A stretch of DNA of 64,000 bases from a virus (Duplodnaviria > Caudoviricetes): positions 1-64,000 of the IMG/VR virus record IMGVR_UViG_3300049988_000245; one strand, written 5' to 3'. The notes beneath the pieces were generated by a model, which worked only from the letters and a program-made list of their open reading frames with translations, ran no database searches and was not told the DNA's origin. This document shows, piece by piece, positions 1,049 through 62,540 of the stretch. Position numbers and translations under genes: made by a program. Position 1 is the first letter of the stretch. Each line of letters starts with the position of its first letter.

Positions 1049-1323
1049 AGCTCTCAGAATTCCAAATCGATTTGGAATTCTACATGGGGGACAGCAGATG
1101 GCGCGTGACCGATGTTGGGTCACGCGCCGTTTGCGCGATCCACGTGGATGAGGCGGTCATCGCCAATGGGACGACGAAGACCACCTACAACAAGCGACAG
1201 GCCGAAGAGAACGGCTGGTTCAACGGGCCGCCCTACGGAGTGGCGGAGACCGTCATCGACGAATACGACCAAGATGCCTGCACACTCGCGTACGCGTATA
1301 TCCTTGGGATCGACAATGAGTGA
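1045..1323 (+). CDS. Hypothetical protein (92 aa)
   Basis: ATGA overlap with upstream stop; WRVTDVGSR and GPPYGVAETVIDEYD motifs. Confidence 0.7.
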   Translation: MKLSEFQIDLEFYMGDSRWRVTDVGSRAVCAIHVDEAVIANGTTKTTYNKRQAEENGWFNGPPYGVAETVIDEYDQDACTLAYAYILGIDNE

Positions 1324-1522
1324 CCTGATCCACATTGTGTGGTTGACGCATATCAAGAGCATTGCTGAGCGCGCCGAGAAGCAAGGCGAGGCGGCGTTTT
1401 GGCTTTTGCAGAACGTTGGATTGCGGAATGGCGCATGGTCGTCGGAGAGCTATGACCATTACATGGAATATCGGTTCGCCGATCCCAACCATGCGTTCGA
1501 ATTCAAGATGCGTTTCGGCTGA
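1316..1522 (+). CDS. Family-F small paralog (FxDxxxAFxFKMRW/F C-terminus)
   Basis: Ends YRFADPNHAFEFKMRFG. Confidence 0.75.
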   Translation: MSDLIHIVWLTHIKSIAERAEKQGEAAFWLLQNVGLRNGAWSSESYDHYMEYRFADPNHAFEFKMRFG

Positions 1523-1764
1523 TGGGCAGGCTGGTTACGCGCTTTCCGATACGGATACGCGATGAAGCAAGCTGGGTCTTGTTCGATGTCGCCTGCGCCA
1601 ATGCGGATGAGACTCTTGAAGAGATCAACGACTGGATGAAAACCCGTCCGACATACTATGCAATCACCAAGATTTTGAATCAACCCTATAATAGACCAGA
1701 TATCATACAGATCGCAATTACCAATCCTAATACGTCGTTCGAGTTCAAGTTCAAATTTGGCTGA
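1522..1764 (+). CDS. Family-F small paralog
   Basis: Ends IAITNPNTSFEFKFKFG; TGATG coupling. Confidence 0.7.
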   Translation: MGRLVTRFPIRIRDEASWVLFDVACANADETLEEINDWMKTRPTYYAITKILNQPYNRPDIIQIAITNPNTSFEFKFKFG

Positions 1765-1783
1765 CACGACCCCGTTATATTAT

Positions 1784-1815
1784 GGCTAAATACCTCAAAG
1801 CCTTGAGGTATAGCC
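1784..1815 (+). promoter_or_regulatory. Late promoter CTAAATA inside an RBS-sequestering hairpin
   Basis: CTAAATA 1786-1792; ATACCTCAA/TTGAGGTAT stem masks GAGG SD of the GTG at 1816. Confidence 0.6.
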
Positions 1816-3435
1816 GTGAATTTTGAAGCCGCCGCTTCCGAAACCTTCCAGATTCTTCGTTCATACGATTACGAAGTCATTCTGTTCAGCGACGAACACC
1901 AGCAGGTGTTCGAGCCCAGCGAGGCTCGCCGCTTTTTCGCCAAGCCCGTGAATCTCCTCGTATCCCTGGTCGATGACGGGGAGGATTCGGCTGTGCGTCT
2001 TTACCTGTCGAAGTCGATCCGGATTTCCGAAGTCATCGGACTGGTTTCAAGTCTTCGTACCATGGCCACTAAATATAAAATGGTTTTCAACGTGCGCGAG
2101 TACAATAAGGTGCTCAGCCCGAAGGATTTTGCCACGCAAGCATCCGTTACCGAATCTAAGGGGAACACTATGAATCTTGTCGAAGGAATGTACGGGACTT
2201 CTCGCAGTTCGTATTTGAAGCTGGAGAATGCCCGCATGATCGTTCGGCATTCGACCCGCATCAACGAGAACATCCTCGGTGCCCGTGGCCGCAATGTCGA
2301 GACCATCCACATTGAGGACAACCAGGGGCAGCGCTTCCTGATGCCGACCCAGCAGCTTGCTCCGGCCCGCGCCATGGCCCACCACGTGGACAACGGCGGC
2401 TCCTGGGCGGACACCGTGGGCGAGCAAATCTCCCGCATGGCCCAGAACTTTGCCGACCTCGGCGCCGCCTCCCGCCATATCGGCCACTATGCCCCCGAGC
2501 TTCACGAGAGCGCCGTCCAGATTCGCGACACCGTTCGCGAGTGCGCCCGAAACATGCGTCGCACCTTCGAATCACTCGGACGTAAGACCCGATACGCGGA
2601 TGTCGCCGAAGGTCTACGCCAGCTTGGTGAGACCCTGAACGAATCCTCCGACGAGGACTACCAGGGCAAGGTCACCGAACTCGCTGGCATGCTGAACACC
2701 GAGTCGGTCCAGCTTTCCGAGCGCGTGCTCACCACGGTCGCCCGCGTCGTCGAAGGCGCCGCCGCTCAGATCGTCGAGGACACATCGGAGACCATCTCAG
2801 TGCTGGGTCACGCGATCCATAAGGACGCATGGACGGCCTTCAAGGAAGGGCGCATCGATCTGACCCAGCCGGTCGCGGAAGTCCCTGGTAGCCCCGCGAA
2901 GACGTTTAAGGCCATCGTGGCGGCCACACAGGACGACACCCTGACGAACTTCCTTAGCTTCGTCCTGGGCGAGATGCTGAAACCAGTCGATCAGCGAACC
3001 GTAGATACGAAGAATCTCCGCGCCATCACCGCCAAGGTTCTCGCATCTGCGCAGAAGCAAATTGATCCGAACGAGCCTATGTCCGTCCCAGCAGTTCGAG
3101 AGTTCCTAGAATGGGCTGACAAGCACACGGTTCGATCGATTCATGAGACCACCGAGGAAGAAACCGAAACGGTCGAAGAGGACGGCTGCTTAGCCGACCG
3201 CGATCTCATGGGCCTCGATTCCGCACTTGAGGAAGAGACCGTGGATGAAAATTGCGGTGAGTGCGAAGGTGACGACCTGACTCAAGAGGATATCCTTCTG
3301 CCAGCAAAGAATGGCGATCTCAAATCTGAAGTCACAAAGTCTTCCGTAGAGGGAGAGAACGGCGAGCAGGCCCCGGACGATAACTACATTAATAGACTTC
3401 AGTCACTCGCTGGAGTTCGTGGCAGGGGATATTAA
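1816..3435 (+). CDS. Late hypothetical protein (539 aa), probable virion/head protein
   Basis: Long ORF with late promoter; many L/V-x-E sites; acidic tail ending RLQSLAG. Confidence 0.6.
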   Translation: MNFEAAASETFQILRSYDYEVILFSDEHQQVFEPSEARRFFAKPVNLLVSLVDDGEDSAVRLYLSKSIRISEVIGLVSSLRTMATKYKMVFNVREYNKVLSPKDFATQASVTESKGNTMNLVEGMYGTSRSSYLKLENARMIVRHSTRINENILGARGRNVETIHIEDNQGQRFLMPTQQLAPARAMAHHVDNGGSWADTVGEQISRMAQNFADLGAASRHIGHYAPELHESAVQIRDTVRECARNMRRTFESLGRKTRYADVAEGLRQLGETLNESSDEDYQGKVTELAGMLNTESVQLSERVLTTVARVVEGAAAQIVEDTSETISVLGHAIHKDAWTAFKEGRIDLTQPVAEVPGSPAKTFKAIVAATQDDTLTNFLSFVLGEMLKPVDQRTVDTKNLRAITAKVLASAQKQIDPNEPMSVPAVREFLEWADKHTVRSIHETTEEETETVEEDGCLADRDLMGLDSALEEETVDENCGECEGDDLTQEDILLPAKNGDLKSEVTKSSVEGENGEQAPDDNYINRLQSLAGVRGRGY

Positions 3436-3989: not shown

Positions 3990-4295
3990 CTAAAAACCCA
4001 AGGGCTTTTTCTTTTCGATCTGCTCAATAGTCATTCTATCTATTGATGAACCACTCCAAAAGGTGACGAACAGAATCATCTCACTCTCCGTAAGGAACGA
4101 GGCACTTTGATTCTCTATTTTAGTTCGTTCATGGGAGAATTGTTCGTGGCACCATTGCAACAGTGTTAGGCATCTTCTGTATGAAACCACACAATCGCCC
4201 GAGCCATTAATTCTGGGCGTCACCCGCCAAGGATTCCCAGGCTTGGGACTGTGATGCCACATGAATCTGTCGTCGGAGAGAGAGGCGTCGGTCAT
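3990..4295 (-). CDS. Divergent family-F-like protein
   Basis: WCHEQF...FLTESEMILFVTFW pattern. Confidence 0.55.
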   Translation of the reverse strand: MTDASLSDDRFMWHHSPKPGNPWRVTPRINGSGDCVVSYRRCLTLLQWCHEQFSHERTKIENQSASFLTESEMILFVTFWSGSSIDRMTIEQIEKKKPLGF

Positions 4296-5062: not shown

Positions 5063-5096
5063 GTTTAATATATTGCCCCGGATAGTGCTGGTTTTG

Positions 5097-5104
5097 TATA
5101 AATA
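5097..5104 (+). promoter_or_regulatory. T4-type late promoter TATAAATA upstream of gp32
   Basis: Exact T4 late consensus. Confidence 0.65.
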
Positions 5105-5188
5105 AACATAGGCAGAGAGCAAATTATCTGTCTTGGCAACCAGCACTAACAACCATTTTCATAACAAATTTTTAAAGGACAAATCATC

Positions 5189-8260: not shown

Positions 8261-8800
8261 ATGACAACATTTTTTACATCCGACACGCATTTCCAGCACG
8301 GGAACATCATCAAGTACTCGAATCGACCGTTCGGAAACGTTCAAGAGATGGACGAGGAGATGATCCGTCGATGGAACGAGACGGTTTCTCCATCAGATAC
8401 GGTCTGGCACCTTGGTGACTTCGCCATGGGCAACCAACAGAACGTTCGCTCGATCCGCCAGCGCCTGAACGGAACCATCCATCTCTGCTGGGGCAATCAC
8501 GATAAGCGTGAGATCGTCGAGAATCAGCACTGTTTCGATTCGATTCAGGACGTGGCGTTCTTCAAGCTGGATGGCGACTTCCTGTTCCTGTCACATTACG
8601 GCCACCGGGTGTGGAACGGCTCCCATAAGGGCACCTATCACCTCTATGGGCACTCCCATGGTGGACTTGAGCCGATCGCCCGCTCCCTGGACGTTGGCGT
8701 GGACGAATGGGACTTCCGTCCGGTCACGATGGGCCAGATCAAGGCCCGCCTCGACTCGATGGGTCTGGCCGAGCCGGTGACCCCACACAATCACCGATGA
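8261..8800 (+). CDS. Calcineurin-like metallophosphoesterase
   Basis: SDTH, HLGD, GNHD, LSHY, HLYGHSH motifs. Confidence 0.9.
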   Translation: MTTFFTSDTHFQHGNIIKYSNRPFGNVQEMDEEMIRRWNETVSPSDTVWHLGDFAMGNQQNVRSIRQRLNGTIHLCWGNHDKREIVENQHCFDSIQDVAFFKLDGDFLFLSHYGHRVWNGSHKGTYHLYGHSHGGLEPIARSLDVGVDEWDFRPVTMGQIKARLDSMGLAEPVTPHNHR

Positions 8801-9045
8801 GCGCTTGGTTCTATCAGGTTCCGGAGACGATGATTGCCCCAGACAACCGTGATCGGGGCTTTCGGTTTCAGTTCAACTACAATTATATGGGTAACGGGCA
8901 TTGGATGGATGTGTTCGAGGCCGTCGCCGAATGGTACGACGAAAACTTCGATGATCCCGAATGGACCCGTGTCGATGGAGGCGGCTTGACGCTGTTCTTC
9001 AAGGACGAAAACACCGCGTTCGAGTTCAAGATGAGGTTCTGCTGA
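8797..9045 (+). CDS. Family-F small paralog
   Basis: Ends LFFKDENTAFEFKMRFC. Confidence 0.8.
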   Translation: MSAWFYQVPETMIAPDNRDRGFRFQFNYNYMGNGHWMDVFEAVAEWYDENFDDPEWTRVDGGGLTLFFKDENTAFEFKMRFC

Positions 9046-12777: not shown

Positions 12778-13547
12778 TGCAGGAATACATCTTTCCCTCA
12801 GACCCTTCGGTGGCCCGCAGGCTGGTCCAGTTAAGCCGGGTGACCCAAACACGGATTACCGTGGAGATTGAGGCTCTAGCCACACGCGGGCTTCTCGCAC
12901 CGGAAGACTTTGCCGGAGCACCATCCCTGACGGAGACCCAGCAGAAAGCAGTCCAGAAACTGATCGACTACCGCTTGCGTGGGGTGCTCTTGGGTGACTC
13001 CGACGACGGCGGGCGTAGCGCAATCCTGATGGCGTGCCGCCTCCAGGGGGTTCGGCCGATTCTCGTATGCACCCGGAGGGCCAGCCAGTGGGCACAGTCG
13101 GCCGAACTCTTTGGTCTCACCTGGGGTAGCGATCCCCTGGTGGACACGGACGTGCTGATCCTGAAAGCATCCGATATCCTACGTCAGGACGTGGTCCGGG
13201 ATCGTAGAAACGGCGTTCTGGTGATCGAGCACACTGATAAGTCCGACTTTGTCCAGGGAACGGAGAATAACGATCAGGCGATTACCCGTGAGTTTGCACG
13301 GGTAATCGTTCTAGCGAACTTCGGTTCGCTCACCCGGACGTTCCACTCGTGGACACGACAGTGTGACATCGCCCTTGGCGTGGCTCTCACCTACCTCTGG
13401 CCGGGCGAGATATTGAAGATTCTCAACCAGACCCATGCGAGGGTGATCGACCTAAAGAGCAGGGGATTCACAAAGTACCGCCCGGCAGACTTGTACTTTA
13501 TGTTCAACGTGATCCCCGACCTGCTGGGGGAACGCGGCCCGCGTTAG
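12774..13547 (+). CDS. Degenerate SNF2-like ATPase N-terminal domain
   Basis: LTETQQKAVQKL...VLLGDSDDGGRS aligns to motif I without the Walker A Lys; ILVC..ASQW. Confidence 0.45.
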   Translation: MMQEYIFPSDPSVARRLVQLSRVTQTRITVEIEALATRGLLAPEDFAGAPSLTETQQKAVQKLIDYRLRGVLLGDSDDGGRSAILMACRLQGVRPILVCTRRASQWAQSAELFGLTWGSDPLVDTDVLILKASDILRQDVVRDRRNGVLVIEHTDKSDFVQGTENNDQAITREFARVIVLANFGSLTRTFHSWTRQCDIALGVALTYLWPGEILKILNQTHARVIDLKSRGFTKYRPADLYFMFNVIPDLLGERGPR

Positions 13548-14008
13548 GACCACCGCATCCGGAATTCGAACGCGTCGTCCTGGCGGTGGAAGTCGATTCG
13601 ATCGTGTTTGAACCCCAACACGATATGGCGGCCACGCTGGTTCAGCCACTCCGCGATGTCGTCGCGGAGCTTGCGGTCATTCGATCCGTAGCGGACAGGA
13701 ACCCACATGTCCTTGGTCAAACGCACATGGGGGACCTCGGCACGCATCGTCAGGATCGGCCGGAACCAGAGAATGCGGATCGTCTCCGCATCCTTCGGGC
13801 ACTGCGGATCGTACTGGCCAATCATCCAGCGGGGCTGGCCGCCCTTCTGCTTCCATTCGAGATCGAAGTCCCCGTCGAGGCGCCGCCACGTCTTTCCGGG
13901 CGTCGTCCCCGTGGGGAGGCTCGCACTGTAGTCGGAAAGCTTCATGAACTCCAAGCAGTTCATCCGCATCACCGGGAGACTGTCGATGTACGCACGATGA
14001 TCGTTCAT
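13544..14008 (-). CDS. Family-F domain fused to an N-terminal DYSASLPTGTTPGKTW domain
   Basis: Ends IDFHRQDDAFEFRMRWS. Confidence 0.75.
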   Translation of the reverse strand: MNDHRAYIDSLPVMRMNCLEFMKLSDYSASLPTGTTPGKTWRRLDGDFDLEWKQKGGQPRWMIGQYDPQCPKDAETIRILWFRPILTMRAEVPHVRLTKDMWVPVRYGSNDRKLRDDIAEWLNQRGRHIVLGFKHDRIDFHRQDDAFEFRMRWS

Positions 14009-14241
14009 CCGAATCTCATCTTGAATTCAAATGCGGTGTTTGCATCAGTAAAAAAGAACATAATGATGTCGAAGTCGTCACGTTGATCTTGCACGTCGTA
14101 GGAGAATTCCCCAGCGGTATCGCCCGCGCCGCAGAACCCCATCATGGCGTCCCAACGCTCGTCCTCATCAAAGCCTATCTTCATCGGGACGCGATGGGTA
14201 AGATTCGGATCGAACTCGATCTCACAATTTTCCAGCGCCAT
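14005..14241 (-). CDS. Family-F small paralog
   Basis: Ends FFFTDANTAFEFKMRFG. Confidence 0.8.
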   Translation of the reverse strand: MALENCEIEFDPNLTHRVPMKIGFDEDERWDAMMGFCGAGDTAGEFSYDVQDQRDDFDIIMFFFTDANTAFEFKMRFG

Positions 14242-14480
14242 CAGCCGAACCTCATCTTGAACGCGAATGCCGTGTTCGGGTCGTTGAAGAAGAAGTCTAC
14301 TTCTTCCGGCTCGCCTTCATCGTTATCCACATAATTCCAGTCGAATTCCCCCGGATTGTCCTCGCTCTCACAAAATTCCAGCGCGGCCTCAAGCTTTGCT
14401 TGATCTAGGTCGGTCACACGGACACTGATCGTGTTGTCATCCGGATCGTAATACAGACTCTCGCTATTCTTCGCCATCAT
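14241..14480 (-). CDS. Family-F small paralog
   Basis: Ends FFFNDPNTAFAFKMRFG. Confidence 0.8.
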   Translation of the reverse strand: MMAKNSESLYYDPDDNTISVRVTDLDQAKLEAALEFCESEDNPGEFDWNYVDNDEGEPEEVDFFFNDPNTAFAFKMRFG

Positions 14481-14713
14481 CCGAACCTCATTTTGAAGGC
14501 GAAAGCGGTGTTCTCATTGGAGAAGTAGAACTCTCCCGTGTTGTCCGGACCGATACTAACCAGCCAGTCGAACGTTCCGATCGTATCGGGGTCCTGACAG
14601 AACGCCATCGCTTCTTTCCAGCGCGCGACATTGTCAAGGTCCGGATAAGCCACGGCGTACCCGTACCGCTTTTTCAGAACGTGCCTGTGCAGGGTTGGAT
14701 TGATAAGCGCCAT
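14477..14713 (-). CDS. Family-F small paralog
   Basis: Ends FYFSNENTAFAFKMRFG. Confidence 0.8.
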   Translation of the reverse strand: MALINPTLHRHVLKKRYGYAVAYPDLDNVARWKEAMAFCQDPDTIGTFDWLVSIGPDNTGEFYFSNENTAFAFKMRFG

Positions 14714-19943: not shown

Positions 19944-20039
19944 TCAATACTCTTTGCGAGCCAACCAAATGACAAACCATGCCAGAAGAAGTGCACCGAT
20001 CGGAGTGATCAGCATGGTTAAAAATGTTTCGACCGTCAT
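19944..20039 (-). CDS. 31-aa single-TM peptide
   Basis: MTVETFLTMLITPIGALLLAWFVIWLARKEY; ATGA overlap with upstream paralog. Confidence 0.6.
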   Translation of the reverse strand: MTVETFLTMLITPIGALLLAWFVIWLARKEY

Positions 20040-20320
20040 GTCCAAGTCAACCTGAATTCGATCGCGTCGTTCATGCAGCGGAACAGAAATAGCCGATGAG
20101 ATGAGTACCAGCGGGAATTGATGTCGAACGTAGTCCAATCACCGTCTTGGCTGTCGGCGTTCGCTCCATACCGCTCTGCGCACCATTCACGCATCTCGGC
20201 GAGTTCGTTCCGGAACATGGTCGGATGAAGGTCTTCGACCGCGATGAACGCGACCCATCCTTTCGCTCGATATTGATCGACCAGATAGCTGTCGTCTCGA
20301 CGGAGTTTGGCGCTTCTCAT
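20036..20320 (-). CDS. Family-F small paralog
   Basis: EMREWCAERYG...LFLFRCMNDAIEFRLTWT. Confidence 0.75.
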   Translation of the reverse strand: MRSAKLRRDDSYLVDQYRAKGWVAFIAVEDLHPTMFRNELAEMREWCAERYGANADSQDGDWTTFDINSRWYSSHRLFLFRCMNDAIEFRLTWT

Positions 20321-23315: not shown

Positions 23316-23639
23316 ATGCCGAACTACGTCTTTGTGGAGAAAACCGGGAAGGCGATCCGTCGTATTCTTGAGGTCAACTATCCGCACATCATTCACATCC
23401 CCGGATACCGGGGGTTCAAGGAGATGAACGAATGGTGCATAGTGCGATTCGGTAATAGCGCGTTGTTCGACGACACGCCCGATCGAACATACCAAACCAG
23501 CCTGTTCACTAGGGACCTGGGTCAGCCAACCCGAATCGACGTGTCCTGCATGTGGGCGGTACGATCGTCCGCATCCGATCTGATGTTCTACTTCAAGGAA
23601 CCCGACATGGCGTTCGAGTTCAAGGTTCGCTGGCGTTGA
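23316..23639 (+). CDS. Family-F small paralog
   Basis: EMNEWCIVRFG...FYFKEPDMAFEFKVRWR. Confidence 0.8.
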   Translation: MPNYVFVEKTGKAIRRILEVNYPHIIHIPGYRGFKEMNEWCIVRFGNSALFDDTPDRTYQTSLFTRDLGQPTRIDVSCMWAVRSSASDLMFYFKEPDMAFEFKVRWR

Positions 23640-24188: not shown

Positions 24189-24497
24189 ATGACCGCATTT
24201 ACGGAACAGAAAGAGCCTGAGGAGCGTTGGCTTTCTCTTGGTTTAGAAAAGGACTACTATAAGTCCATGTACCCGTACTGGTTCTCAGTACCCGAGACAT
24301 CCCGTTTTCCGTGCACAATTTTTCCGGAGGTGCACGAATGGTGCTCTGAACAATGGGGTGGACAATCGGCACGCCGCTGGTCGCAATCACGCGGAGCATG
24401 GCGGGTCCGCGATGATTCCACCTGGGCGTATTTTCGTGAGGTATTTTACTTCAAGGACCCCGACCACTGCGTGCTGTTTCAGCTACGGTGGCGCTGA
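24189..24497 (+). CDS. Family-F small paralog
   Basis: EVHEWCSEQWG...FYFKDPDHCVLFQLRWR. Confidence 0.8.
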   Translation: MTAFTEQKEPEERWLSLGLEKDYYKSMYPYWFSVPETSRFPCTIFPEVHEWCSEQWGGQSARRWSQSRGAWRVRDDSTWAYFREVFYFKDPDHCVLFQLRWR

Positions 24498-24787
24498 TGG
24501 CAAAGCAGCGCGTATGGAGGATTGGGATTGATTCGGACCCTCCGGCGGACTGGACCAGCGTGTACGTCGATGTCTCAAGAGTCCATCGAGGACGCTTCGA
24601 ACGTACCGAACCAGAATATCGAAACATTTCTTGGTGGGAGAATATGACAACTTGGATCGGCATGCAGCCGGGTGAGTACTGCTACGCCTTTGGGAATCGT
24701 AAACCAGAGTTCGACGGAGACAATCGCTACCTGTTCAAGTTCTCCGACCCTTTGGTAGCGTTTGAGTTCAAGATCGTATGGAGTTGA
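24497..24787 (+). CDS. Family-F small paralog
   Basis: Ends YLFKFSDPLVAFEFKIVWS; TGATG coupling. Confidence 0.75.
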   Translation: MAKQRVWRIGIDSDPPADWTSVYVDVSRVHRGRFERTEPEYRNISWWENMTTWIGMQPGEYCYAFGNRKPEFDGDNRYLFKFSDPLVAFEFKIVWS

Positions 24788-25454: not shown

Positions 25455-26133
25455 TCTAGTCGATTTTCCGTGCCCCTATTGCACCCGGAGATTCAAGAGG
25501 GAGGCTAGTCTGTTCGCCCATATGTGCGCGAAGAAGCAGCGGCATGTCGATCGGGATGAACGGTATGTCAAGCTAGGATTTCAAATTTTCCAGAAATTCT
25601 ATTCGCTTCATTACAAGTCGTCTAAGCCGCGAACGTACGATGACTTCGCGTCGAATCAGTTCTACGGAGCGTTTACGAAATTCTCCAAATATCTACTTGC
25701 GATCAACGCAGTGAATCCCAACGGGTTCGTGGACTTTCTGCTGAAGATCAATCTGAAGATCGACCAGTGGCATCTGCCTCCGGTGTATGAACTCTACCTG
25801 CGCGAACTCACCAAGAAGGAAACCGCAGACGCCGCGCTGGAGCGGAACTTCCGGGTGATGGAGCGCTGGGGGACCGAGTACGGCGAGGACTGGAAGGACT
25901 TCTTCCGCAAGGTCGCTCCGTCAGAGGCCGTCCTGATGATCACCGCAGGGAGAATCAGTCCCTGGGTCCTTTATACGGCGCAATCCTCGGCCGATCTGTT
26001 CTCCCGGATGTCGTCGGAGCAGATCGACCTCATCCAACCCGCGTTGGACCCGCAATTTTGGGAGCGCAAGCTCTCTGACCATGCCGAAGAAGTGTCGGCG
26101 ATTCGTGAAGTATTGGAAGAGGTTGGAATCTGA
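25414..26133 (+). CDS. C2H2 zinc-finger-containing protein (start uncertain)
   Basis: FPCPYCTRRFKREASLFAHMC. Confidence 0.7.
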   Translation: MPPRKKPASPKSADLVDFPCPYCTRRFKREASLFAHMCAKKQRHVDRDERYVKLGFQIFQKFYSLHYKSSKPRTYDDFASNQFYGAFTKFSKYLLAINAVNPNGFVDFLLKINLKIDQWHLPPVYELYLRELTKKETADAALERNFRVMERWGTEYGEDWKDFFRKVAPSEAVLMITAGRISPWVLYTAQSSADLFSRMSSEQIDLIQPALDPQFWERKLSDHAEEVSAIREVLEEVGI

Positions 26134-26366
26134 TGGAAATCTGGAGAGGAATAGACGGGAAAGTTCTCGGATGGCGGGCAGATGCACGCAAGGACACCGG
26201 GTTCGTCCACAAAGCCTGGGACGCGTTCGATGCCCGCCTCACACCCGAGGCTGAGCTTTGGTTCGAACAGTCAGAGAGCGCCAATTATACGACGCTTGGT
26301 TTACATGCATTCATTCATATTAGTTCACCCAATGATCGGCTTCACTTCAAACTTAAATGGCTGTAA
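26133..26366 (+). CDS. Family-F small paralog
   Basis: Ends IHISSPNDRLHFKLKWL. Confidence 0.65.
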   Translation: MEIWRGIDGKVLGWRADARKDTGFVHKAWDAFDARLTPEAELWFEQSESANYTTLGLHAFIHISSPNDRLHFKLKWL

Positions 26367-27155: not shown

Positions 27156-27266
27156 AGGGCATGGCCGCCGGATTATCCAGGCGGACAGCACACCGATCCC
27201 GAGAGTCCCGAACAGGGCCGTCAGCGGAAGGATGATGAACAGAAACGTATCGGCGGAGACCATCAT
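27123..27266 (-). CDS. 47-aa single-TM peptide (not in ORF track)
   Basis: MMVSADTFLFIILPLTALFGTLGIGVLSAWIIRR...; TGATG coupling to paralog. Confidence 0.5.
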   Translation of the reverse strand: MMVSADTFLFIILPLTALFGTLGIGVLSAWIIRRPCPSRVVHDDAKP

Positions 27267-27526
27267 CACGACCACCTGATCCTGAATTCGAACGCGTCAT
27301 CGTCGTCTCGAAAAACGAACGTCGTGCCACCGTGCTGGTCGATAAAGCCCCAGCGACCCTGAGACTCTTTCTCACGCCGACGCCATGTCTTACCGATCAT
27401 GCTGCGGTCACCGAAATGCTCAAGGCACCACAGATGGACAATGGCTTTATTGTCCCACGGGCCTTTGAACACGTGGTAGTAGCCGGGATACCAGAGGGCA
27501 TCGCTCAGGCTGTAGGTGTATGCCAT
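27266..27526 (-). CDS. Family-F small paralog
   Basis: LWCLEHFG...FVFRDDDDAFEFRIRWS. Confidence 0.8.
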   Translation of the reverse strand: MAYTYSLSDALWYPGYYHVFKGPWDNKAIVHLWCLEHFGDRSMIGKTWRRREKESQGRWGFIDQHGGTTFVFRDDDDAFEFRIRWS

Positions 27527-27858
27527 CGAAGCTTGAACTCGATCGCCTCATGGGCGTGCTCGAACAGGTAATCGTGCGTCAGGTGCGACTCCGAGACGAC
27601 GATCCATGTCCCGGTTGACCACGACACGTACGCGGTGTCCATGGCATTCGAAATCAGGCAGGGCGTGCCGATCCGCTCCCATATCCAGCGGGTAATCTCC
27701 TCATCGAGATCGCTCGTTGGCACTTTGATCGTGACCACGTGGGGGAATTTTTCCCGTAAAAACGGAATCATAAGAATGTGATTCGACCTCGGCGAAATCC
27801 ATTCCTCGTTGCGCTCCCAACTGCGCTCGAACTTGGTATCGTCGAGGCTCAGCATCAT
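27505..27858 (-). CDS. Family-F paralog
   Basis: Ends YLFEHAHEAIEFKLRWHTPTA. Confidence 0.75.
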   Translation of the reverse strand: MMLSLDDTKFERSWERNEEWISPRSNHILMIPFLREKFPHVVTIKVPTSDLDEEITRWIWERIGTPCLISNAMDTAYVSWSTGTWIVVSESHLTHDYLFEHAHEAIEFKLRWHTPTA

Positions 27859-28076
27859 CCCCACATGATCCTCACGGCGCTCGCCATGCCCCGGTCGGAG
27901 CAATGGAAGGTGATCGTCTCACCCAAAGTGAAACAGAACGAGAGGCGTTCCGGAGGCTTGTCCGGCTTCGCCTCCCATGTGAGATGCACCCAATCTTGCA
28001 TCTCCCAAATCGGGGGATGTCCTGGCTTCATGGGCACCTGATAGATCAGTTTGGCGTTATGTCCGATCGGCGGCAT
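27855..28076 (-). CDS. Family-F small paralog
   Basis: Ends FHCSDRGMASAVRIMWG. Confidence 0.65.
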   Translation of the reverse strand: MPPIGHNAKLIYQVPMKPGHPPIWEMQDWVHLTWEAKPDKPPERLSFCFTLGETITFHCSDRGMASAVRIMWG

Positions 28077-28510: not shown

Positions 28511-28876
28511 TCAACTACCTAGCTGGACCGAGAGCGACCCGAACATCATTTTGAACGCAAACGCCGTATTGGCATCACTGAACGAGAATCGATGCCGGTA
28601 TCCGACGATCGGAAAGACCACGTCCATCTGACTGTAGACGTGGAAGATTTCTTCCTCGTTGGTGAAGTAGACGTTATCCACCGTGTTGTGGCGAATCTTC
28701 CTCTCCCGGTGGACGTATGAGCCGGGCAACGCGACATCATCCAACCAAGCTTCGATCTCGGGCATGCATGCGTACCGGTGGGGTCGCATCGGGTTGGGTC
28801 CGGTAAAAATCTCGTCGATTTCTACCTCGGCCGTTTGGTCACCCAACCGGTACAGGTCGTCCAGGCGGCGCGCCAT
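28511..28876 (-). CDS. Family-F paralog
   Basis: EIEAWL...FSFSDANTAFAFKMMFG. Confidence 0.75.
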   Translation of the reverse strand: MARRLDDLYRLGDQTAEVEIDEIFTGPNPMRPHRYACMPEIEAWLDDVALPGSYVHRERKIRHNTVDNVYFTNEEEIFHVYSQMDVVFPIVGYRHRFSFSDANTAFAFKMMFGSLSVQLGS

Positions 28877-29954: not shown

Positions 29955-30227
29955 TCAAGCCATCGGGAAGTCGCACTTCTGGAAGCCCGTCATGGTGTCG
30001 TGCCAGCCTAGAAGCTCGTTGCCGATCTGCAAGAACCGGACGATATTGGCCTTGTCAAACATGTCGCCGTTCTGATGCGCGCGGGCAAAAATCAGAAAAA
30101 TCTGCTCGGATTCCTTGTAGATCGCTCGAACTTCTTTCTCGTTTGAAGGCATTGCCGTGATAATCTCTTGGGCCATCACCGCATAGGACTTCATCTTCGA
30201 GCTTAAATCGATTTTCTCACCCATCAT
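29955..30227 (-). CDS. Hypothetical protein
   Basis: ATGA-coupled ORF with SD GAGGTGG. Confidence 0.6.
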   Translation of the reverse strand: MMGEKIDLSSKMKSYAVMAQEIITAMPSNEKEVRAIYKESEQIFLIFARAHQNGDMFDKANIVRFLQIGNELLGWHDTMTGFQKCDFPMA

Positions 30228-30460
30228 ACCCACCTCATTTTAAATGCCGTTGCATCGTCTAAACGCTTAAAATACCAATCGTATCCAGACTTTGCGTCGA
30301 GAAACACATCGGTAATCAGACGATTACCGAGCAGGTCTTGCAGCCAATTCTCCATTTCGGGCTGCATACTGTTGTAACTGCGCTTCGCCTTCACGTGGAA
30401 GTCATAGCGGTTCATCCATTCGGTCGGGTCGATCGAGTCGTCCGCGTCTGGCTCCCTCAC
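30224..30460 (-). CDS. Family-F small paralog
   Basis: GTGA overlap with serS stop; ends WYFKRLDDATAFKMRWV. Confidence 0.7.
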   Translation of the reverse strand: MREPDADDSIDPTEWMNRYDFHVKAKRSYNSMQPEMENWLQDLLGNRLITDVFLDAKSGYDWYFKRLDDATAFKMRWV

Positions 30461-32180: not shown

Positions 32181-32798
32181 ATGGCCCTTGTTAATACTGA
32201 CATCGACATTGACTTCGCGAATCGTGATCATGCCCTGAAGGGGCTGCATCATATTCCAGCCACCGTTCGGGATTCGATCGGACGCCACACCCGGCACGTC
32301 TCGGGGGTCTATTTCCAGCCCGTCCCGATCGACCCCCTCAGCGGGCTGTCCGCGTACGCCTATGACGAGGCGGCCGAACGCGGCTATTTTAAAATCGATT
32401 TCCTGAACAACTCGATCTATCAGGGCATTCGGGACGAAGCCCATCTGGACGAACTCCTCGCGAAGGAAGTCGAGTGGGAGTTATTTGATGAATCAACCTT
32501 CGTGGAGGAGCTTCCTCATATTGGGAATCACTTCGGCACAGTCCAATCGATCAAGCCGCGCTCGATCGAAGACCTCGCGGTGATTCTCGCCCTGATGCGT
32601 CCGGGCAAGCGCTACCTGATTGGTCAGCCCCGGTCGAAGGTGGACGAGGAAATCTGGAAGCCTGACCCGAAGGGGTACCACTTCAAGCGCGCCCACGCCA
32701 TCGCATACTCAGTATCCATTATCGTGAAACTCCATTTGCTTATTGAACAGCTTGGTTCTTCGATCGATGCGGAAAAAGCCAACGATGCCCTCTTCTAG
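32181..32798 (+). CDS. dnaE: Short DNA polymerase III alpha (DnaE)-like catalytic-core protein
   Basis: DIDIDF, RHVSGVY, GYFKIDFL, LALMRPG, FKRAHAIAY; no PHP domain. Confidence 0.75.
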   Translation: MALVNTDIDIDFANRDHALKGLHHIPATVRDSIGRHTRHVSGVYFQPVPIDPLSGLSAYAYDEAAERGYFKIDFLNNSIYQGIRDEAHLDELLAKEVEWELFDESTFVEELPHIGNHFGTVQSIKPRSIEDLAVILALMRPGKRYLIGQPRSKVDEEIWKPDPKGYHFKRAHAIAYSVSIIVKLHLLIEQLGSSIDAEKANDALF

Positions 32799-33165
32799 CC
32801 TACACGCGGGCTATCCCCGGTGGGGGGACGATCTCTACTTGGTCGGCGACGTGTATGATTCTGAAACGAGCAAGCAGATTTGGACCTGCCTGATCATGCG
32901 AATCTATGATCACGAGAAAGACCTCGATCGTGGCCGATTCGAAAATTTCAAGCGCGAAACTCGGGAGTTCACCGTCTCGTTCAAGCTGACCAATCAGTCC
33001 CAACCCTGGGCCACCCTCATCGGACCGATGATCAACTGGATCGCCGAGATCGGCAATCAGCCATGGAGCTTGGACATCGACATCCTACACGTGGGCGAGG
33101 GGCGGTTCGACTTCAGCTTCGACGAACTCGATGTGGCGACGATGTTCAAGCTGGTGTTCGCATGA
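32785..33165 (+). CDS. Family-F paralog
   Basis: Ends FSFDELDVATMFKLVFA. Confidence 0.7.
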   Translation: MPSSSLHAGYPRWGDDLYLVGDVYDSETSKQIWTCLIMRIYDHEKDLDRGRFENFKRETREFTVSFKLTNQSQPWATLIGPMINWIAEIGNQPWSLDIDILHVGEGRFDFSFDELDVATMFKLVFA

Positions 33166-33404
33166 ACTACCAGTTCGACGTCGAGAGCGCGTGGTTTCCC
33201 GTCCACGAGAGCCCGAAGCCGCGCAAGGATTGGTTCCGGAAGCGCTACGAGGTGCTGGCCGAATGGCTGGACGAAAACACCCCGGAGTGGAAGTTCAGGG
33301 CGGAACTAGACAATTACGAGTACGACTCGATCTACTCGTTCTATCGAATCGTCGTTCAGTTCGATGAAGAGGATGACGCATTCCTCTATAAGATGCGCTG
33401 GTGA
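33162..33404 (+). CDS. Family-F small paralog
   Basis: LAEWLDEN...VQFDEEDDAFLYKMRW. Confidence 0.8.
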   Translation: MNYQFDVESAWFPVHESPKPRKDWFRKRYEVLAEWLDENTPEWKFRAELDNYEYDSIYSFYRIVVQFDEEDDAFLYKMRW

Positions 33405-33439: not shown

Positions 33440-33884
33440 ATGACCTATCAGAACCCTCCCCGTGGCGGTATCGTCCAGCCAAACTCAAAGCATAGCTATC
33501 GTGTCAAGTTTCGCGGTGGCTTCATCGATACCTCGGAATCCTACCTTGATTTCATGCAAAACATGATCTCGGTAGACCTAGACCTTGTCGCGAAGCGCAT
33601 CACCCTGGTGCCGGGACGACATTCTGGCGCTCGCCTCACAGCATATCGCAAAAATGCTGAAGCTGTCTGAATCCGATATCTGCATCGAGCATCTGTCGAA
33701 CTGTGCCGACGTGGTCTCGGTGAAGTCGTTCTCTCACTGCGAGGCGGTCTCGCACACGTACAAGCTCGATTATGCCGAGGCGGGTGCTGCCACACACACG
33801 CTGGTGTTCTCCTATTACGACTTTCGCACCTATCTGGCGCGCAAGCCCATCGATCCGGTTGAAGAGTTCGATCCGGTCATTTAG
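33440..33884 (+). pseudogene. Late gene apparently split by a +1 frameshift (33440-33670 and 33585-33884)
   Basis: TTAAATA promoter; second frame reads as a natural continuation and has no SD. Confidence 0.4.
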
Positions 33885-34144
33885 CACCAGCGCATCTTGA
33901 AATCGAACGCGTCGATTTCTTCGCGGAACATGATCTTTGGCGCCTCATGGTGCCAGAGCTTCTTTCGCTTCATCCGGTCCTCACACCACTGGACGACCTC
34001 AGAGAACTCTTTGGGCAACATACCTCTAGGTCCGATGAACCGGTACGGGTAATGACGATCCAAAGGAGACCCACCGATCCACCGACCGGTCTGGCGGTCA
34101 TAATAGTTATAGCTCCCTCGTTTCATCTCGATGAATTTTAGCAT
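33881..34144 (-). CDS. Family-F small paralog
   Basis: EVVQWCE...IMFREEIDAFDFKMRWC. Confidence 0.8.
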   Translation of the reverse strand: MLKFIEMKRGSYNYYDRQTGRWIGGSPLDRHYPYRFIGPRGMLPKEFSEVVQWCEDRMKRKKLWHHEAPKIMFREEIDAFDFKMRWC

Positions 34145-34145
34145 C

Positions 34146-34589
34146 TCAGTACCACTGCATCTTGAACCACATGGCTTCGTTCGGGTCCTCAAACCACAGG
34201 ATCGCTTCGGACAGTTGATGATCCGAAAACGGCAGCATCGTCCATTGCGAGACGAGATTCGACTTACACCATTCCCGTACGTCCTTACGCAGGGAATGCC
34301 GCTTCGCCAAACCATCCAAGATGGACCGCGCTGATCCGTAGAGTTCTCGCCGTCCATCCGCCTCCAGATTGAGGCGCGCCCCTCCGGCGTACCGAATCTC
34401 ATGATCCTCGTGAAACGCAGCGAGGCGAGCAGCATAATCCTGGCTCGCAAGAATGCGCCGTTGGTGTTCTTCCGCTTCCCGTTCGATCCACTGCTGGGTT
34501 TCATACCGCGCCGCCTTGACCCCGGCAATGACGAACGTGATTAGCATTCCCATACACAGCAGGAAAACAATGAATCCTGCCACGTTCAT
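34146..34589 (-). CDS. Family-F domain with N-terminal TM anchor and coiled coil
   Basis: TM helix; DVREWCKSN...LWFEDPNEAMWFKMQWY. Confidence 0.8.
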   Translation of the reverse strand: MNVAGFIVFLLCMGMLITFVIAGVKAARYETQQWIEREAEEHQRRILASQDYAARLAAFHEDHEIRYAGGARLNLEADGRRELYGSARSILDGLAKRHSLRKDVREWCKSNLVSQWTMLPFSDHQLSEAILWFEDPNEAMWFKMQWY

Positions 34590-37028: not shown

Positions 37029-37310
37029 ATGTCGATCGAACGCGCTATCCGCTACGCCACCTCGCGCATGGACGCCGGGCGCGTCGCTCGTGATTATGGC
37101 GAGTTCTCCATGTGGCGCAGCCGAATGAAGTGGCTTCGCGAGAAAGTCCGCCTCTACAAGTCCGCAGCCGCTGAGATTGCTCGGGACGAACTCCACATCC
37201 TCGTTGAGGAGAATGCTCGCCGGTCTCCCGACCTTCACCCGAAAATCCTCGCCTACCGGATCAGGTCGTCCGCTGCGGCCGAGGAAATGCTTTTGAGACT
37301 CGGCGGATGA
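37029..37310 (+). CDS. Hypothetical protein
   Basis: SD AGGAG; basic helical protein. Confidence 0.6.
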   Translation: MSIERAIRYATSRMDAGRVARDYGEFSMWRSRMKWLREKVRLYKSAAAEIARDELHILVEENARRSPDLHPKILAYRIRSSAAAEEMLLRLGG

Positions 37311-37609
37311 AGTTTCGCCCGACCAGCCCGACCATGTTCATGCTGGACCTACCATTCGTCGGACCGAACGAGTGGGAATCCAAACTGATCCGGAAGAACG
37401 ATACCCTCAAGGCGGTATTCGACGCTGGCTGGTGGTGGTGCGTCCGTCAGCATGGCGAGCCGAAGTCGATTGGAGTACGCGATTCCGACGATGACTGGAT
37501 TTGGTCGTTCTTCGGGTTCTATCCCCTCCGGCGCGAAGGAACGCTTCGTTCAGGCATCTACTTCAAGGACCCGAATGCGGCGTTCCACTTTCGGCTGGCC
37601 TGCTGTTAA
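37307..37609 (+). CDS. Family-F small paralog
   Basis: WWCVRQHG...IYFKDPNAAFHFRLACC. Confidence 0.75.
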   Translation: MKFRPTSPTMFMLDLPFVGPNEWESKLIRKNDTLKAVFDAGWWWCVRQHGEPKSIGVRDSDDDWIWSFFGFYPLRREGTLRSGIYFKDPNAAFHFRLACC

Positions 37610-49606: not shown

Positions 49607-49703
49607 GATAACATGCTATCAGGATCACATATATTTGACAATGTGACTGCTGATATATTCATTTTTTATACTATAAATACTTCGCAAATATTTGAGGTCA
49701 TTA

Positions 49704-53831: not shown

Positions 53832-53848
53832 ATTTAAAGGATCAATTT

Positions 53849-54910: not shown

Positions 54911-54928
54911 GATTTTGAGGTAAAATAA

Positions 54929-56092: not shown

Positions 56093-56099
56093 TCCATAC

Positions 56100-56127
56100 A
56101 ACTCCGGGTCCTACGGGACCCGGAGTT
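56100..56127. terminator. Bidirectional hairpin with UACG loop
   Basis: AACTCCGGGTCC-TACG-GGACCCGGAGTT. Confidence 0.75.
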
Positions 56128-56158
56128 TCCGCCTACTGGAGGCTGAAAATGGAGAGAG

Positions 56159-56413
56159 TCAACCCCATCGCATCTTGAAGGCGAACGCGTCATTCTCATC
56201 GGAAAAATAGAATGCGTCGCCTGCATCGATCCAGCGATTGCAATAGGTGGACCTGTGGGACGGGTACAAGACGGGTCCGAACTGCTCCGTGCACCACTCA
56301 ATCATCTCGGGGCTGGCCCCGTCATTAGTCCAGATCAGATGAGGGAATTGCCGATAGAGGTTCTTTTCCCTGATGGCTTGGCGCTTGGCCAACACGCTAT
56401 CCCAAAGGCTCAT
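56159..56413 (-). CDS. Family-F small paralog
   Basis: EMIEWCTEQFG...FYFSDENDAFAFKMRWG. Confidence 0.82.
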   Translation of the reverse strand: MSLWDSVLAKRQAIREKNLYRQFPHLIWTNDGASPEMIEWCTEQFGPVLYPSHRSTYCNRWIDAGDAFYFSDENDAFAFKMRWG

Positions 56414-56631
56414 CAGCCCCACCGCATCTTGCAGGCAAATGCCGTATTTTTATCGGTGAAGTATAGACGCTGGCACTTCTCGGTCGAGTCATATGCCAGC
56501 GTCCACTTACCCTTTTGTTCGGGAAGAGTTAACCAATCCCGAACATAACCGAGATACTTGATTTTCTCTCGATCGAGGATGAAGCTCTCCGGCATCTCGG
56601 TATGTCGATGATGCGGGAGATACTTCGCCAT
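56413..56631 (-). CDS. Family-F small paralog
   Basis: Ends LYFTDKNTAFACKMRWG. Confidence 0.8.
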   Translation of the reverse strand: MAKYLPHHRHTEMPESFILDREKIKYLGYVRDWLTLPEQKGKWTLAYDSTEKCQRLYFTDKNTAFACKMRWG

Positions 56632-59597: not shown

Positions 59598-59672
59598 TGG
59601 CGTCCCCTCAGGGATTCGAACCCTGGATCGCGGAGTTAGAAGCCGCTGCCTTAACCGCTTGGCTAAGGGGAC
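59598..59672 (-). tRNA. tRNA with CUA anticodon on a tRNA-Glu-like body
   Basis: GTCCCCT/AGGGGAC acceptor, G73, CCA, 4-nt variable loop; anticodon arm GCGGC-TTCTAAC-TCCGC. Confidence 0.8.
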
Positions 59673-59678
59673 ATACGG

Positions 59679-59752
59679 TGTCTCTGGTCGGGCTCGAACC
59701 GACGACCAATGGAGTTAGAAGCCACCGCTCTGACCAACTGAGCTACAGAGAC
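59679..59752 (-). tRNA. Second tRNA with CUA anticodon, A73, CCA not fully encoded
   Basis: GTCTCTG/CAGAGAC acceptor; GCTC/GAGC D-arm; GTGGC-TTCTAAC-TCCAT; GGTTCGAGCCC T-arm. Confidence 0.8.
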
Positions 59753-61041: not shown

Positions 61042-61051
61042 GGTCGATTCC

Positions 61052-61321
61052 TTACTGTGTGATCGTGGGGTTCTTGATTCCGGCCCACCGAATACGAAAA
61101 TGGAAGGCCGTGTTCTCATCGCTGAAGTAATACAACTCGTATCCATCAGCGTGGTACCAGTATCCGGGCTGATCGGTACACCATTCCCGGAGTTCTTTAC
61201 TGTAGTTGAAGTTCCTTTTTCCCAAATAGACTTTGTGGACTTTTCCCCACTTCTTTCGAATGTGGTTAAGGAGAAAATCTTTGTGCCGCATCTCTGGTGG
61301 TCGGTTCTCGTAATTCGTCAT
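61052..61321 (-). CDS. Family-F small paralog
   Basis: ELREWC...YYFSDENTAFHFRIRWA. Confidence 0.8.
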   Translation of the reverse strand: MTNYENRPPEMRHKDFLLNHIRKKWGKVHKVYLGKRNFNYSKELREWCTDQPGYWYHADGYELYYFSDENTAFHFRIRWAGIKNPTITQ

Positions 61322-61323
61322 GA

Positions 61324-61899
61324 TCACTTCCACCTCAGTGTGTACATGATCGCGTCATGCTGGTACTCGAACGCGATACCTACGGTGGTGGAACAGCCCG
61401 AGGCCCATCCCACACGCTTGTGCTGGCCCATGCAGGTGTCGGCCAACCAAACTTCGATTTCCTGAAGCTTCTTCACGTCGAAGCGGATGACCTTCATCAG
61501 GTACCAACTTGGGTCGATCTGGAGCGTCGCCTTCAGGGAGGCCATCTGCGCCTGATCCTCCCATTTCTCAGTGCCGACGAAGTTCGAATCCGTGTAGCCG
61601 TATTCGCCCGGCTCCCACTGATCCGCCTCGGGTAGCGCACAGATGCGCGTCAGGCCCTCGTGGAGCTTGGCGAGCAGTTCCGGGTCATTGGCGTTGCCTT
61701 CTTCCTCGAACGCCACGCCAGGGCTGTCGAAGGTCACCTGAAGGTAGGCGTCCTTCGTGAGGGAGAAGAACAGGGAGGAATTGTACTGACGGTCGATCGA
61801 ACACCCGATCTCGGTGTCCTCCGCGTCGAGTTCGGCGTCGTCTGGTAGGGCTGGAAGGCGGGCGAGCAGAGTCGCCCAATCTCTTTCGAGATCAGTCAT
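61324..61899 (-). CDS. Family-F domain with acidic N-terminal extension
   Basis: EIEVWL...IAFEYQHDAIMYTLRWK; SD GGAG. Confidence 0.75.
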   Translation of the reverse strand: MTDLERDWATLLARLPALPDDAELDAEDTEIGCSIDRQYNSSLFFSLTKDAYLQVTFDSPGVAFEEEGNANDPELLAKLHEGLTRICALPEADQWEPGEYGYTDSNFVGTEKWEDQAQMASLKATLQIDPSWYLMKVIRFDVKKLQEIEVWLADTCMGQHKRVGWASGCSTTVGIAFEYQHDAIMYTLRWK

Positions 61900-62102
61900 G
61901 GAGGTCTCCGGAATGTGATGGGGTTGAAACGCAGAAACGCCCGCCGCCGGAATCAACCGGTGACGAGCGTCAGATAGGCAAACTGTGGGCGAGCAGGCGA
62001 AACGGCCGGTGATCCGGGCCAGGAACGCGATGATCGCGGAAAGGCGGTTCTACAAGGTCATGAGGGGAATCTAGCGCAGCCGTGTCGGACTGGCAATATG
62101 AT

Positions 62103-62540
62103 TTATCTGCCTGTGCACCACGTAATTTTGAACTGCATCGCGGTTGCCAAATCCTCGAACAGATAGTGTTTGCGAACGGCGTCACCTCGCCAAAGCGTAG
62201 GTGGATTCCCGGCAATGGCGCGAGACCCTAGGCGCTGCCTCATCGTGCGCTCATCCGTAGTCAGATCGACGAGCGTTTCCCAGCGCTTTACCACACCGGT
62301 TCCGCAATCATACGCCCAGCTTTCAGGCGTATCGAAGCCGCTAGATCGAGATGGGAAGCGGCGCGTTGTCATGAACCTATCGAGACGAGAAACTTCGTGG
62401 AAATGGTGTTGATTCTGGATCAGCGCGATAACCTGTGCATCCAAATCCCATTCGTCTGCCCACATGATCCGGCAAGGGTTTGGTCGGTCTCGGTCGCCAC
62501 GCTCGGTGCGCCAAACACCATCCGAACCCTGCCACCACAT
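62103..62540 (-). CDS. Family-F domain protein
   Basis: Ends YLFEDLATAMQFKITWCTGR. Confidence 0.7.
   Translation of the reverse strand: MWWQGSDGVWRTERGDRDRPNPCRIMWADEWDLDAQVIALIQNQHHFHEVSRLDRFMTTRRFPSRSSGFDTPESWAYDCGTGVVKRWETLVDLTTDERTMRQRLGSRAIAGNPPTLWRGDAVRKHYLFEDLATAMQFKITWCTGR

Follow-up and report, generated by a model that had tools for sequence, protein, structure and literature searches.

We analysed a 64,000-nt stretch of viral DNA (positions 1 to 64,000 of IMG/VR record IMGVR_UViG_3300049988_000245, hereafter the window), which is the first 64 kb of a single contig of 265,895 bp, and in which an initial annotation had noticed dispersed small paralogues sharing the C-terminal motif F-x-D-x3-A-F-x-F-K-M-R-W/F. 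We confirmed the motif observation and found the family to be larger than first reported, with 92-100 copies in the whole contig, or ~20% of its genes. The copies are genuine genes of one phage-specific, previously undescribed protein family, and we read them tentatively, at somewhat less than an even chance, as diversified binding proteins that act outside the virion in host takeover or counter-defence. The IMG/VR record is classed as linear, with a CheckV completeness of 57% and a GC content of ~55%. Because homologues of 89 non-family genes occur in the 469-kb genome of Sinorhizobium phage Phosso (median amino-acid identity 38%) and a 1,379-aa (amino acid) window protein of He_PIG Ig-like repeats also matches Agrobacterium phage Atu_ph07, we identified the contig as part of a soil-type, T4-related jumbo phage that is a distant relative of these two phages and probably infects an alphaproteobacterium.

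To count the family, we used a strict regular expression for the C-terminal motif, which retrieved 14 open reading frame (ORF) tails in the window and 61 in the contig, with 2 spurious, and a hidden Markov model (HMM) iterated to convergence, which matched 92 contig ORFs at E ≤ 1e-3, including 26 in the window. The reversed genome and a triplet-shuffled genome yielded 0 HMM matches and 2-3 regular-expression matches. A six-frame search with the alignment of the 92 paralogues (alignment A1) returned 99 contig matches at E ≤ 0.01, and a broader HMM including foreign homologues returned 101 at E < 0.1 while adding nothing in the window. Gene numbers were taken from a rough codon-usage gene caller, which predicted 427 genes in the contig and picked 85 of the 92 family copies, yielding a family share of 85-92/427 genes (~20%) and 25.1 kb (9.4%) of the contig; the largest other paralogue groups have 3 members. 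Family genes make up 26 of the ~109 genes of the window and 7.9 kb (12%) of its length, less than the 9.5 kb and ~15% first estimated. The initial count of ~31 window copies (27 clear and 4 divergent) likewise came down to 26-27 (26 significant and 1 visibly divergent), the family itself being upheld; its outer coordinates, 1316 and 62540, are those of the first and last HMM members. Copies occur singly and in arrays of 2-8 with overlapping stop and start codons, sited between conserved replication, tRNA-synthetase and metabolic genes, and all five runs named at the outset were recovered (4 copies in 13544-14713, 2-3 in 27266-28076, 4 in 32785-34589, 2 in 56159-56631 and 3 in 61052-62540).

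The motif of the 38 exact-motif copies is encoded by 38 different 24-mers, with arginine written by all six codons and alanine by four, so that the constraint acts on the protein and not on the DNA. We then used the metagenomic contig ERR11040811_32560, which is collinear with window 30-58 kb at 82-90% nucleotide identity, as a close relative: six orthologue pairs, 73-95% identical, had ratios of nonsynonymous to synonymous substitution rates (dN/dS) of 0.05-0.20. The median dN/dS was 0.14 for the family vs 0.08 for 23 neighbouring genes, the family dN being modestly higher (p=0.04). Together with the absence of HMM matches in the shuffled and reversed controls, the acceptance of 85/92 copies by the gene caller and the confident fold model described below, these results refute the reading of the copies as a repeated DNA element or chance ORFs that form no protein family.

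We modelled the product of 56162-56407 with AlphaFold2 from alignment A1, resulting in a predicted local distance difference test score (pLDDT) of 90.7, a predicted template modelling score (pTM) of 0.75, and a model with helices at residues 2-20, 33-43 and 71-81 and strands at 23-26, 59-61 and 65-68. The domain is accordingly modelled as ~80 residues in the order helix0-strand1-helix1-strand2-strand3-helix2. In a metagenomic two-domain homologue (P0001), predicted from a different alignment, the second domain repeats the helix-strand-strand-helix part at a pLDDT of ~90; the whole P0001 model had a pLDDT of 63.5 and a pTM of 0.47, its first domain having almost no alignment depth. The predicted structures thus share a fold, in line with the conserved small alpha/beta scaffold proposed initially. 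A two-copy homodimer prediction with alignment A1 scored 0.02, which gives no answer in either direction.

The high-information columns of the alignment are W38 (88/92), C/L39, G44, W/Y/F59, F68, A74, F/M75, F77, K/R78, M/L79, R80 and W/F81; E34, E41, R58 and D70 are moderately conserved and almost all other columns hold <1 bit. The strongest columns are mostly aromatic or hydrophobic, with the addition of K78 and R80. The upstream helix with E, W and C/L that had been noticed by eye is borne out by these columns, since W38 is followed by C in 44 and L in 28 sequences, and glutamate is the most frequent residue at positions 34 and 41. The middle is hypervariable, as described: the spacing from the helix-1 tryptophan to the last helix ranges over 18-61 residues, that is, over a variable helix1-strand2 loop. 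Median member length is 88 aa, and 65/83 proteins stop exactly one residue beyond the K-M-R-W motif. Members are mostly acidic (75% with an isoelectric point below 7; median isoelectric point 5.7, median net charge -2), and a transmembrane (TM) helix is present in 2/85. A separate observation concerns cysteine, which follows the invariant helix-1 tryptophan (position 39) in 44/92 members and is the last residue (position 82) in 20/90.

A few members carry N-terminal extensions of 60-140 residues, including the three singled out in the initial annotation: the TM anchor of 34146-34589 and the LPTGTT stretch of 13544-14008 were both found, and the extension at 61324 is present as well, although its acidity is only moderate (17% D+E). 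Scans of the extensions of the long members against Pfam and PHROGs gave only a weak match to phrog_24427, of unknown function; an 'RNase H' PHROG match on one extension was marginal (E 0.001) and was treated as noise. For the N-terminal part of 13544-14008, the model submitted to the ESM Atlas was of low confidence.

To place the family among known proteins, we compared all 92 members with Pfam-A 2025, PHROGs v4 and NCBIfam 20.0, where matches stayed below the cut-offs and any family was matched by at most one member. The A1 profile had 0 matches among PDB sequences at E ≤ 10, and Foldseek had none against the PDB below E 0.8. An exhaustive VIA structure search reached a top Z of 4.8, with KH, secretin-N, RRM and ACT domains. 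Among predicted viral structures, dozens of 'uncultured Caudovirales phage' uncharacterised proteins matched, and the ESM Atlas returned only viral hypothetical clusters, one with 4,872 members. In these databases, as in Phosso, where all copies are annotated as hypothetical, we found no assigned function, as the initial annotation had supposed, and no match to a characterised family.

The similar motifs that had been expected in related jumbo phages do exist. The family HMM, whose use on this genome and its relatives had been proposed from the start, counted 92 copies here and 38 ORF-based matches in Phosso (PV764938.1), where the six-frame search gave 49; examples are XYS97177.1 and XYS97205-08, which lie in arrays among tRNA genes. 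Copies are less dense in Phosso, with 38-49 in 469 kb, than in this contig, with at least 92 in 266 kb. In Atu_ph07, a single plausible copy was found (AUZ95037.1). When three members were used as single tblastn queries against 50,697 phage records, there was no match, and Phosso was found only by profile search. Such a family goes unmentioned in the papers on Atu_ph07 (PMC6102473) and on the Sinorhizobium jumbo phage AP-J-162.

We then ran a profile search of 1.84 billion cluster representatives, yielding 3,685 proteins at E ≤ 1e-3; the best 150 of these are mostly 65-100 aa long with the domain at the C-terminus, and some chains hold two domains. In-frame two-domain fusions in metagenomes include P0001, P0009, P0020, P0027 and others. 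A homologue search for fused, longer forms returned none at E ≤ 1e-3, which is weak evidence. Every carrier seen has multi-copy arrays, namely Phosso, other metagenomic phage contigs, IMG/VR contigs (3-13 copies, one of the contigs being of 52 kb) and a Methylobacterium chromosome; another phage type (Logan contigs of 77-122 kb, GC 59%) has ~18 copies within 20 kb. A pattern scan of 185,579 bacterial and archaeal species genomes gave 10 loci, with real members only at two Methylobacterium carpenticola loci; we rejected the other 8 as chance matches, a number near that estimated from the information content of the pattern. The family appears to be virus-restricted, and its metagenomic relatives likewise appear almost entirely viral. 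M. carpenticola ID0610 (NZ_JBHZEO010000001.1) carries 4 members on its chromosome, one locus adjoining a gene for a 1,087-aa DEAD/Helicase_C protein, and these loci may be a prophage or other mobile element.

To describe how the family evolved, we compared the domains with each other and with those of Phosso. Paralogous domains in the contig are 24% identical at the median and never more than 45%; for adjacent copies the mean is 26.8% vs 24.1% across all pairs, and the closest paralogue lies within 3 kb for only 7/92 copies. Pairwise-detectable Phosso counterparts exist for 2/85 family genes, 24/179 other small genes and 65/163 larger genes (Fisher p=0.004 for the family against other small genes). 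In a FastTree phylogeny of 138 domains, genome labels changed 30 times vs 45.6±2.2 with shuffled labels, and single-genome clades reached 8-10 copies with modest support. The block collinear between window 5.2-42.4 kb and Phosso 307.5-327.3 kb takes up 37 kb in this phage and 20 kb in Phosso, and holds 19 copies here vs 2 in Phosso, which agrees with the insertion of copies between core genes described initially.

From the low paralogue identity, the Phosso comparison and the clustering of the tree by genome, we conclude that the family is old and evolves by birth and death with lineage-specific growth, without recent amplification. Each copy is kept by purifying selection in the short term and is gained, lost or altered past recognition in the long term. 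The word 'library', as far as it implied fast diversification, is therefore not borne out, the paralogues being old and each under purifying selection between close relatives. Recent tandem duplication in the manner of a genomic accordion was ruled out by the maximum identity of 45% and by neighbours being barely closer than random pairs. We also considered a target of a diversity-generating retroelement and rejected it, as no reverse transcriptase (PF00078) was found in the 266-kb fragment (~57% of the genome).

To group genes by promoter, we used two motifs. The first, [ACT]TAAATA, resembles the T4 late promoter TATAAATA and is ~20-fold enriched in upstream intergenic regions. The second class is sigma70-like, TTGAC-N16-17-TAyATT followed by GGnGAATCAGC. 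As a cassette it reads gTTGAC(a/g)-N14-yGTGTAyATTaGGgGAATCAgC, with a conserved box downstream of the -10 element, and occurs at ~13 contig sites, for example upstream of window 14713(-) and 29904(-); it may be a phage early promoter. Units headed by the late motif contain 6% of family genes vs 22% of other genes, and sigma70-like units 20% vs 12%. A 22-kb block at 236.9-258.7 kb of the contig, which encodes the three largest, giant structural ORFs and has Phosso homologues, holds no family copy.

We propose that each copy would be a small, mostly acidic, soluble cytoplasmic protein in which an invariant aromatic core (W38, W59, F68, A74, F75, F77, M79, W81) keeps the common fold, while each copy would owe its particular binding partner to the variable helix1-strand2 loop, other variable positions and occasional N-terminal additions (TM anchor, domains). 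Working ahead of virion assembly or independently of it, the copies would together serve to inhibit host proteins or act as adaptors for them, and their counterparts in large eukaryotic viruses would be expanded multigene families. We regard this as the most economical reading. The virus-only distribution, the acidic soluble proteins and the tendency away from late promoters point indirectly toward such an effector role. Several observations weigh against it. The promoter contrast is weak, reaching only marginal significance when whole transcription units are compared (p ~0.07-0.08), and the units that contain 74% of family genes are of unclassified promoter type. Whole-gene dN/dS indicates purifying, not positive, selection and so gives no sign of an arms race. 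K78 and R80 match the core residues in conservation, which would also fit a shared ligand or docking partner and not 100 targets, and neither VIA (top Z 4.8) nor Foldseek against the PDB (lowest E 0.8) gave an informative match for the fold.

The members could instead be nucleic-acid-binding regulators, RNA or DNA factors built on a truncated RRM/KH-like module that control phage or host expression, which we consider unlikely. RRM, KH-like and secretin-N domains have the same generic strand-helix-strand-strand-helix order, which is common to ferredoxin-like split beta-alpha-beta domains in general (ACT/RCK_C included); these were the only PDB rows returned, the weak rows being mostly RRM, KH and ACT/RCK_C. 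By eye, the stretch 'h-x-F-x-D-x-x-D-A', which closes strand 3 and caps the N-terminus of the last helix, looks like the strand3-helix2 junction of an RRM. K78 and R80 show conservation as well, and a role of this kind has been proposed before, for the Zn-ribbon expansion of Bacillus phage G (PMC7824862). The scores are at background (VIA Z ≤ 4.8; Foldseek E ≥ 0.8, probability ≤0.1): RRM rows had Foldseek E ≥ 2.5 and probability ≤0.06, and the best RRM in VIA, 6exx, had a Z of 4.3 and a root-mean-square deviation of 2.3 over 50 residues. On the other hand, the family has an extra N-terminal helix and shows no profile match or visible RNP motifs. The four-stranded b1-a1-b2-b3-a2-b4 fold of an RRM is not present: the model ends with helix 2 and lacks b4, as 65/83 proteins stop one residue past the helix motif. 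RRM_1 is not among the Pfam matches of the members, nor is there a consistent Pfam RRM or KH match among the 92. The acidity of 75% of members, with a median net charge of -2, further argues against binding to nucleic acids.

Conserved K78 and R80 are also what one would expect of an adaptor library with a common dock, in which one face of the C-terminal helix (K78, R80, E34, E41) would bind a single machine while the variable parts recruit cargo; we rate this as improbable, and as equally improbable that the machine is the phage-encoded ClpX/ClpP, in which case the variable loop and N-terminal additions of each copy would catch a different host protein and many host factors and defences would be removed or re-routed at once. 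The polar residues K78 and R80 equal the core in conservation, the domain is always at the extreme C-terminus while N-terminal additions vary, and the contig encodes ClpP and a ClpX-type AAA+ protein with counterparts in Phosso. On the other side, the F77 and W81 that flank K78/R80 are conserved aromatics that we read as part of the fold core, so the motif is no free peptide tag, and with 20% of all genes belonging to the family, adjacency to ClpP is without meaning. An adaptor library, if true, would be the phage counterpart of the expanded poxvirus adaptor families, whose members have a C-terminal ligase-docking motif in common.

Gene placement bears on a further alternative, that the paralogues are virion-associated proteins, internal (ejected) proteins or assembly factors that have multiplied, as the inner-body and internal-protein families known from other large phages do. 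Very large capsids hold many accessory proteins, and a shared module could serve incorporation into the particle; Atu_ph07 virions contain 112 unannotated proteins (PMC6102473). This role is nevertheless doubtful at best, as the family is rarer in units headed by the late motif, is absent from the giant structural gene block, and is dispersed among replication and metabolic genes. We give a similarly low probability to self-association, whereby neighbouring paralogues would pair or form a heteromeric assembly instead of binding foreign targets. The in-frame two-domain fusions in metagenomes and the usual tandem placement of copies with overlapping stop and start codons speak for it; most copies here, however, are single-domain, many stand alone, and fusions can come from mere stop-codon loss.

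The SUKH/SMI1-KNR4 and Imm immunity proteins of polymorphic toxin systems are small alpha/beta proteins encoded in tandem arrays, where the paralogues are highly divergent and each is presumed to counteract a partner of its own. The family described here shares the tandem arrays of divergent small proteins (2-8 copies) but is virus-borne, lies away from toxin genes and is far more numerous, and none of the 92 members matched the SMI1_KNR4 or Imm Pfam models. The Phosso hypothetical proteins are true homologues and also arrayed, although only 2/85 copies here have a pairwise-detectable counterpart among them. With 92-100 copies, the contig is a case of many paralogues of one domain in one viral genome, for which the Zn-ribbon expansion of phage G (~35 copies, called 'unprecedented'; Iyer et al. 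2021, PMC7824862) is among the closest likenesses, as it too multiplies one small domain within a single jumbo-phage genome; its authors proposed transcription factors or structural DNA-binding proteins. The present family differs in being alpha/beta without a metal-binding cysteine set, in reaching ~3x the copy number in roughly half a genome, and in spanning several phage lineages and ~3,685 metagenomic clusters. In eukaryotic DNA viruses (poxviruses and other nucleocytoviruses), large paralogous families are interpreted as adaptations against host defences and drivers of genome growth (reviewed in PMC13359090). One family taking up ~9% of the DNA and 20% of the genes recalls such multigene families and genomic accordions, but accordion copies are recent and near-identical, whereas the copies here are at most 45% identical and individually conserved.

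The copies in the window are listed in Table 1.

Table 1. Family copies in the window; E-values are from the iterated family HMM, and orthologues are those in ERR11040811_32560.
Position	Strand	Description	Support
1316..1522	+	Member, 68 aa, tail HAFEFKMRFG	E 5.4e-11
1579..1764	+	Member, ~61-80 aa, divergent tail SFEFKFKF	E 1.4e-7
8797..9045	+	Member, 82 aa, tail TAFEFKMRFC	E 1.8e-12
13544..14008	-	Member, 154 aa, ~90-aa extra N-terminal domain (LPTGTT stretch; weak phrog_24427 match)	E 2.7e-8
14005..14241	-	Member, 78 aa, tandem array	E 2.9e-11
14241..14480	-	Member, 79 aa, tandem array	E 4.4e-10
14477..14713	-	Member, 78 aa, heads 4-gene array; sigma70-like promoter just upstream	E 7e-11
20036..20320	-	Member, 94 aa	E 1.5e-11
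23316..23639	+	Member, 107 aa	E 1.3e-12
24189..24497	+	Member, 102 aa	E 3.4e-12
24488..24787	+	Member, 99 aa	E 1.5e-8
26133..26366	+	Divergent member, 77 aa	E 6.9e-5
27266..27526	-	Member, 86 aa	E 2.3e-12
27505..27858	-	Member, 117 aa, 5 residues past motif	E 5.1e-13
27855..28076	-	Probable very divergent member, 73 aa (EMQDW…ASAVRIMWG)	Translation by eye; below HMM threshold
28511..28876	-	Member, ~121 aa, short C-terminal tail	E 1.5e-9
30224..30460	-	Member, 78 aa, directly downstream of seryl-tRNA synthetase gene	E 1.3e-10
32785..33165	+	Divergent member, 126-132 aa; orthologue 94.7% identical	E 9.1e-5
33162..33404	+	Member, 80 aa; orthologue 82% identical	E 7.8e-10
33881..34144	-	Member, 87 aa; orthologue 73% identical, dN/dS 0.09	E 1.1e-13
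34146..34589	-	Member, 147 aa, N-terminal TM helix and helical linker	E 4.8e-9; Kyte-Doolittle 2.76
37307..37609	+	Member, 100 aa; counterpart absent from ERR11040811_32560	E 5.4e-9
56159..56422	-	Member, 87 aa, best-scoring copy, the modelled one	E 5.2e-18; AlphaFold2 pLDDT 90.7
56413..56631	-	Member, 72 aa; orthologue 75% identical	E 1e-12
61052..61333	-	Member, 93 aa, 9-residue C-terminal tail	E 1.5e-13
61324..61899	-	Member, ~191 aa, ~140-aa moderately acidic N-terminal extension	E 1.7e-7
62103..62540	-	Divergent member, 145 aa, N-terminal extension	E 2e-6

Besides the He_PIG protein, the core genes of the window encode a RecA-like protein, two helicases, DnaB, a radical-SAM protein and seryl-tRNA synthetase. 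The He_PIG gene lies, with two paralogous genes (353 and 387 aa), in a 6.5-kb segment at window 49607-56160 that is missing from the otherwise collinear ERR11040811_32560; given this absence, the Ig-repeat protein and the paralogous pair, the segment is probably a variable host-recognition cassette. The counterparts in that relative of window 36547-36990(+) and 39145-39789(+) have HNH and GIY-YIG endonuclease domains, and window 4292-5146(-) is a paralogue of 39145-39789(+); these three genes are probably homing endonucleases among the replication genes. Outside the window, contig 173965-174561(+) encodes ClpP (E 2e-74) and contig 156987-158294(+) the ClpX-type AAA+ ATPase, both with counterparts in Phosso.

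Translation genes include the seryl-tRNA synthetase gene at window 30457-31749(-) and a tRNA-Cys gene at 22039-22113(+); in Phosso, tRNA genes, histidyl-tRNA synthetase and family members are likewise interleaved. Two tandem tRNA genes with a CUA anticodon, at window 59598-59672(-) and 59677-59752(-), are amber suppressors that ARAGORN labels tRNA-Pyl, with the anticodon loop TTCTAAC and U33 and A37 in place. TAG is the stop of 52/427 predicted genes, and ORFs of ≥300 aa number 93 with the standard code, 144 when TAG is read through and 123 when TAA is read through; this ORF-lengthening test on the contig fragment gave no clear sign of genome-wide TAG recoding.

Phages of 400-500 kb pose the question of what made them grow so large, and 'ORFans' form the majority of their genes. 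In the fragment analysed here, one unrecognised domain accounts for ~1/5 of the genes, and the family explains part of the extra length between core genes relative to Phosso. It has no model in Pfam, PHROGs or NCBIfam despite thousands of metagenomic relatives. Since Sinorhizobium phage Phosso, which carries the family, is in culture on S. meliloti, the function is directly testable, and a family profile would unite hundreds of 'hypothetical' or 'unique' ORFs of rhizobial jumbo phages in one annotated family.

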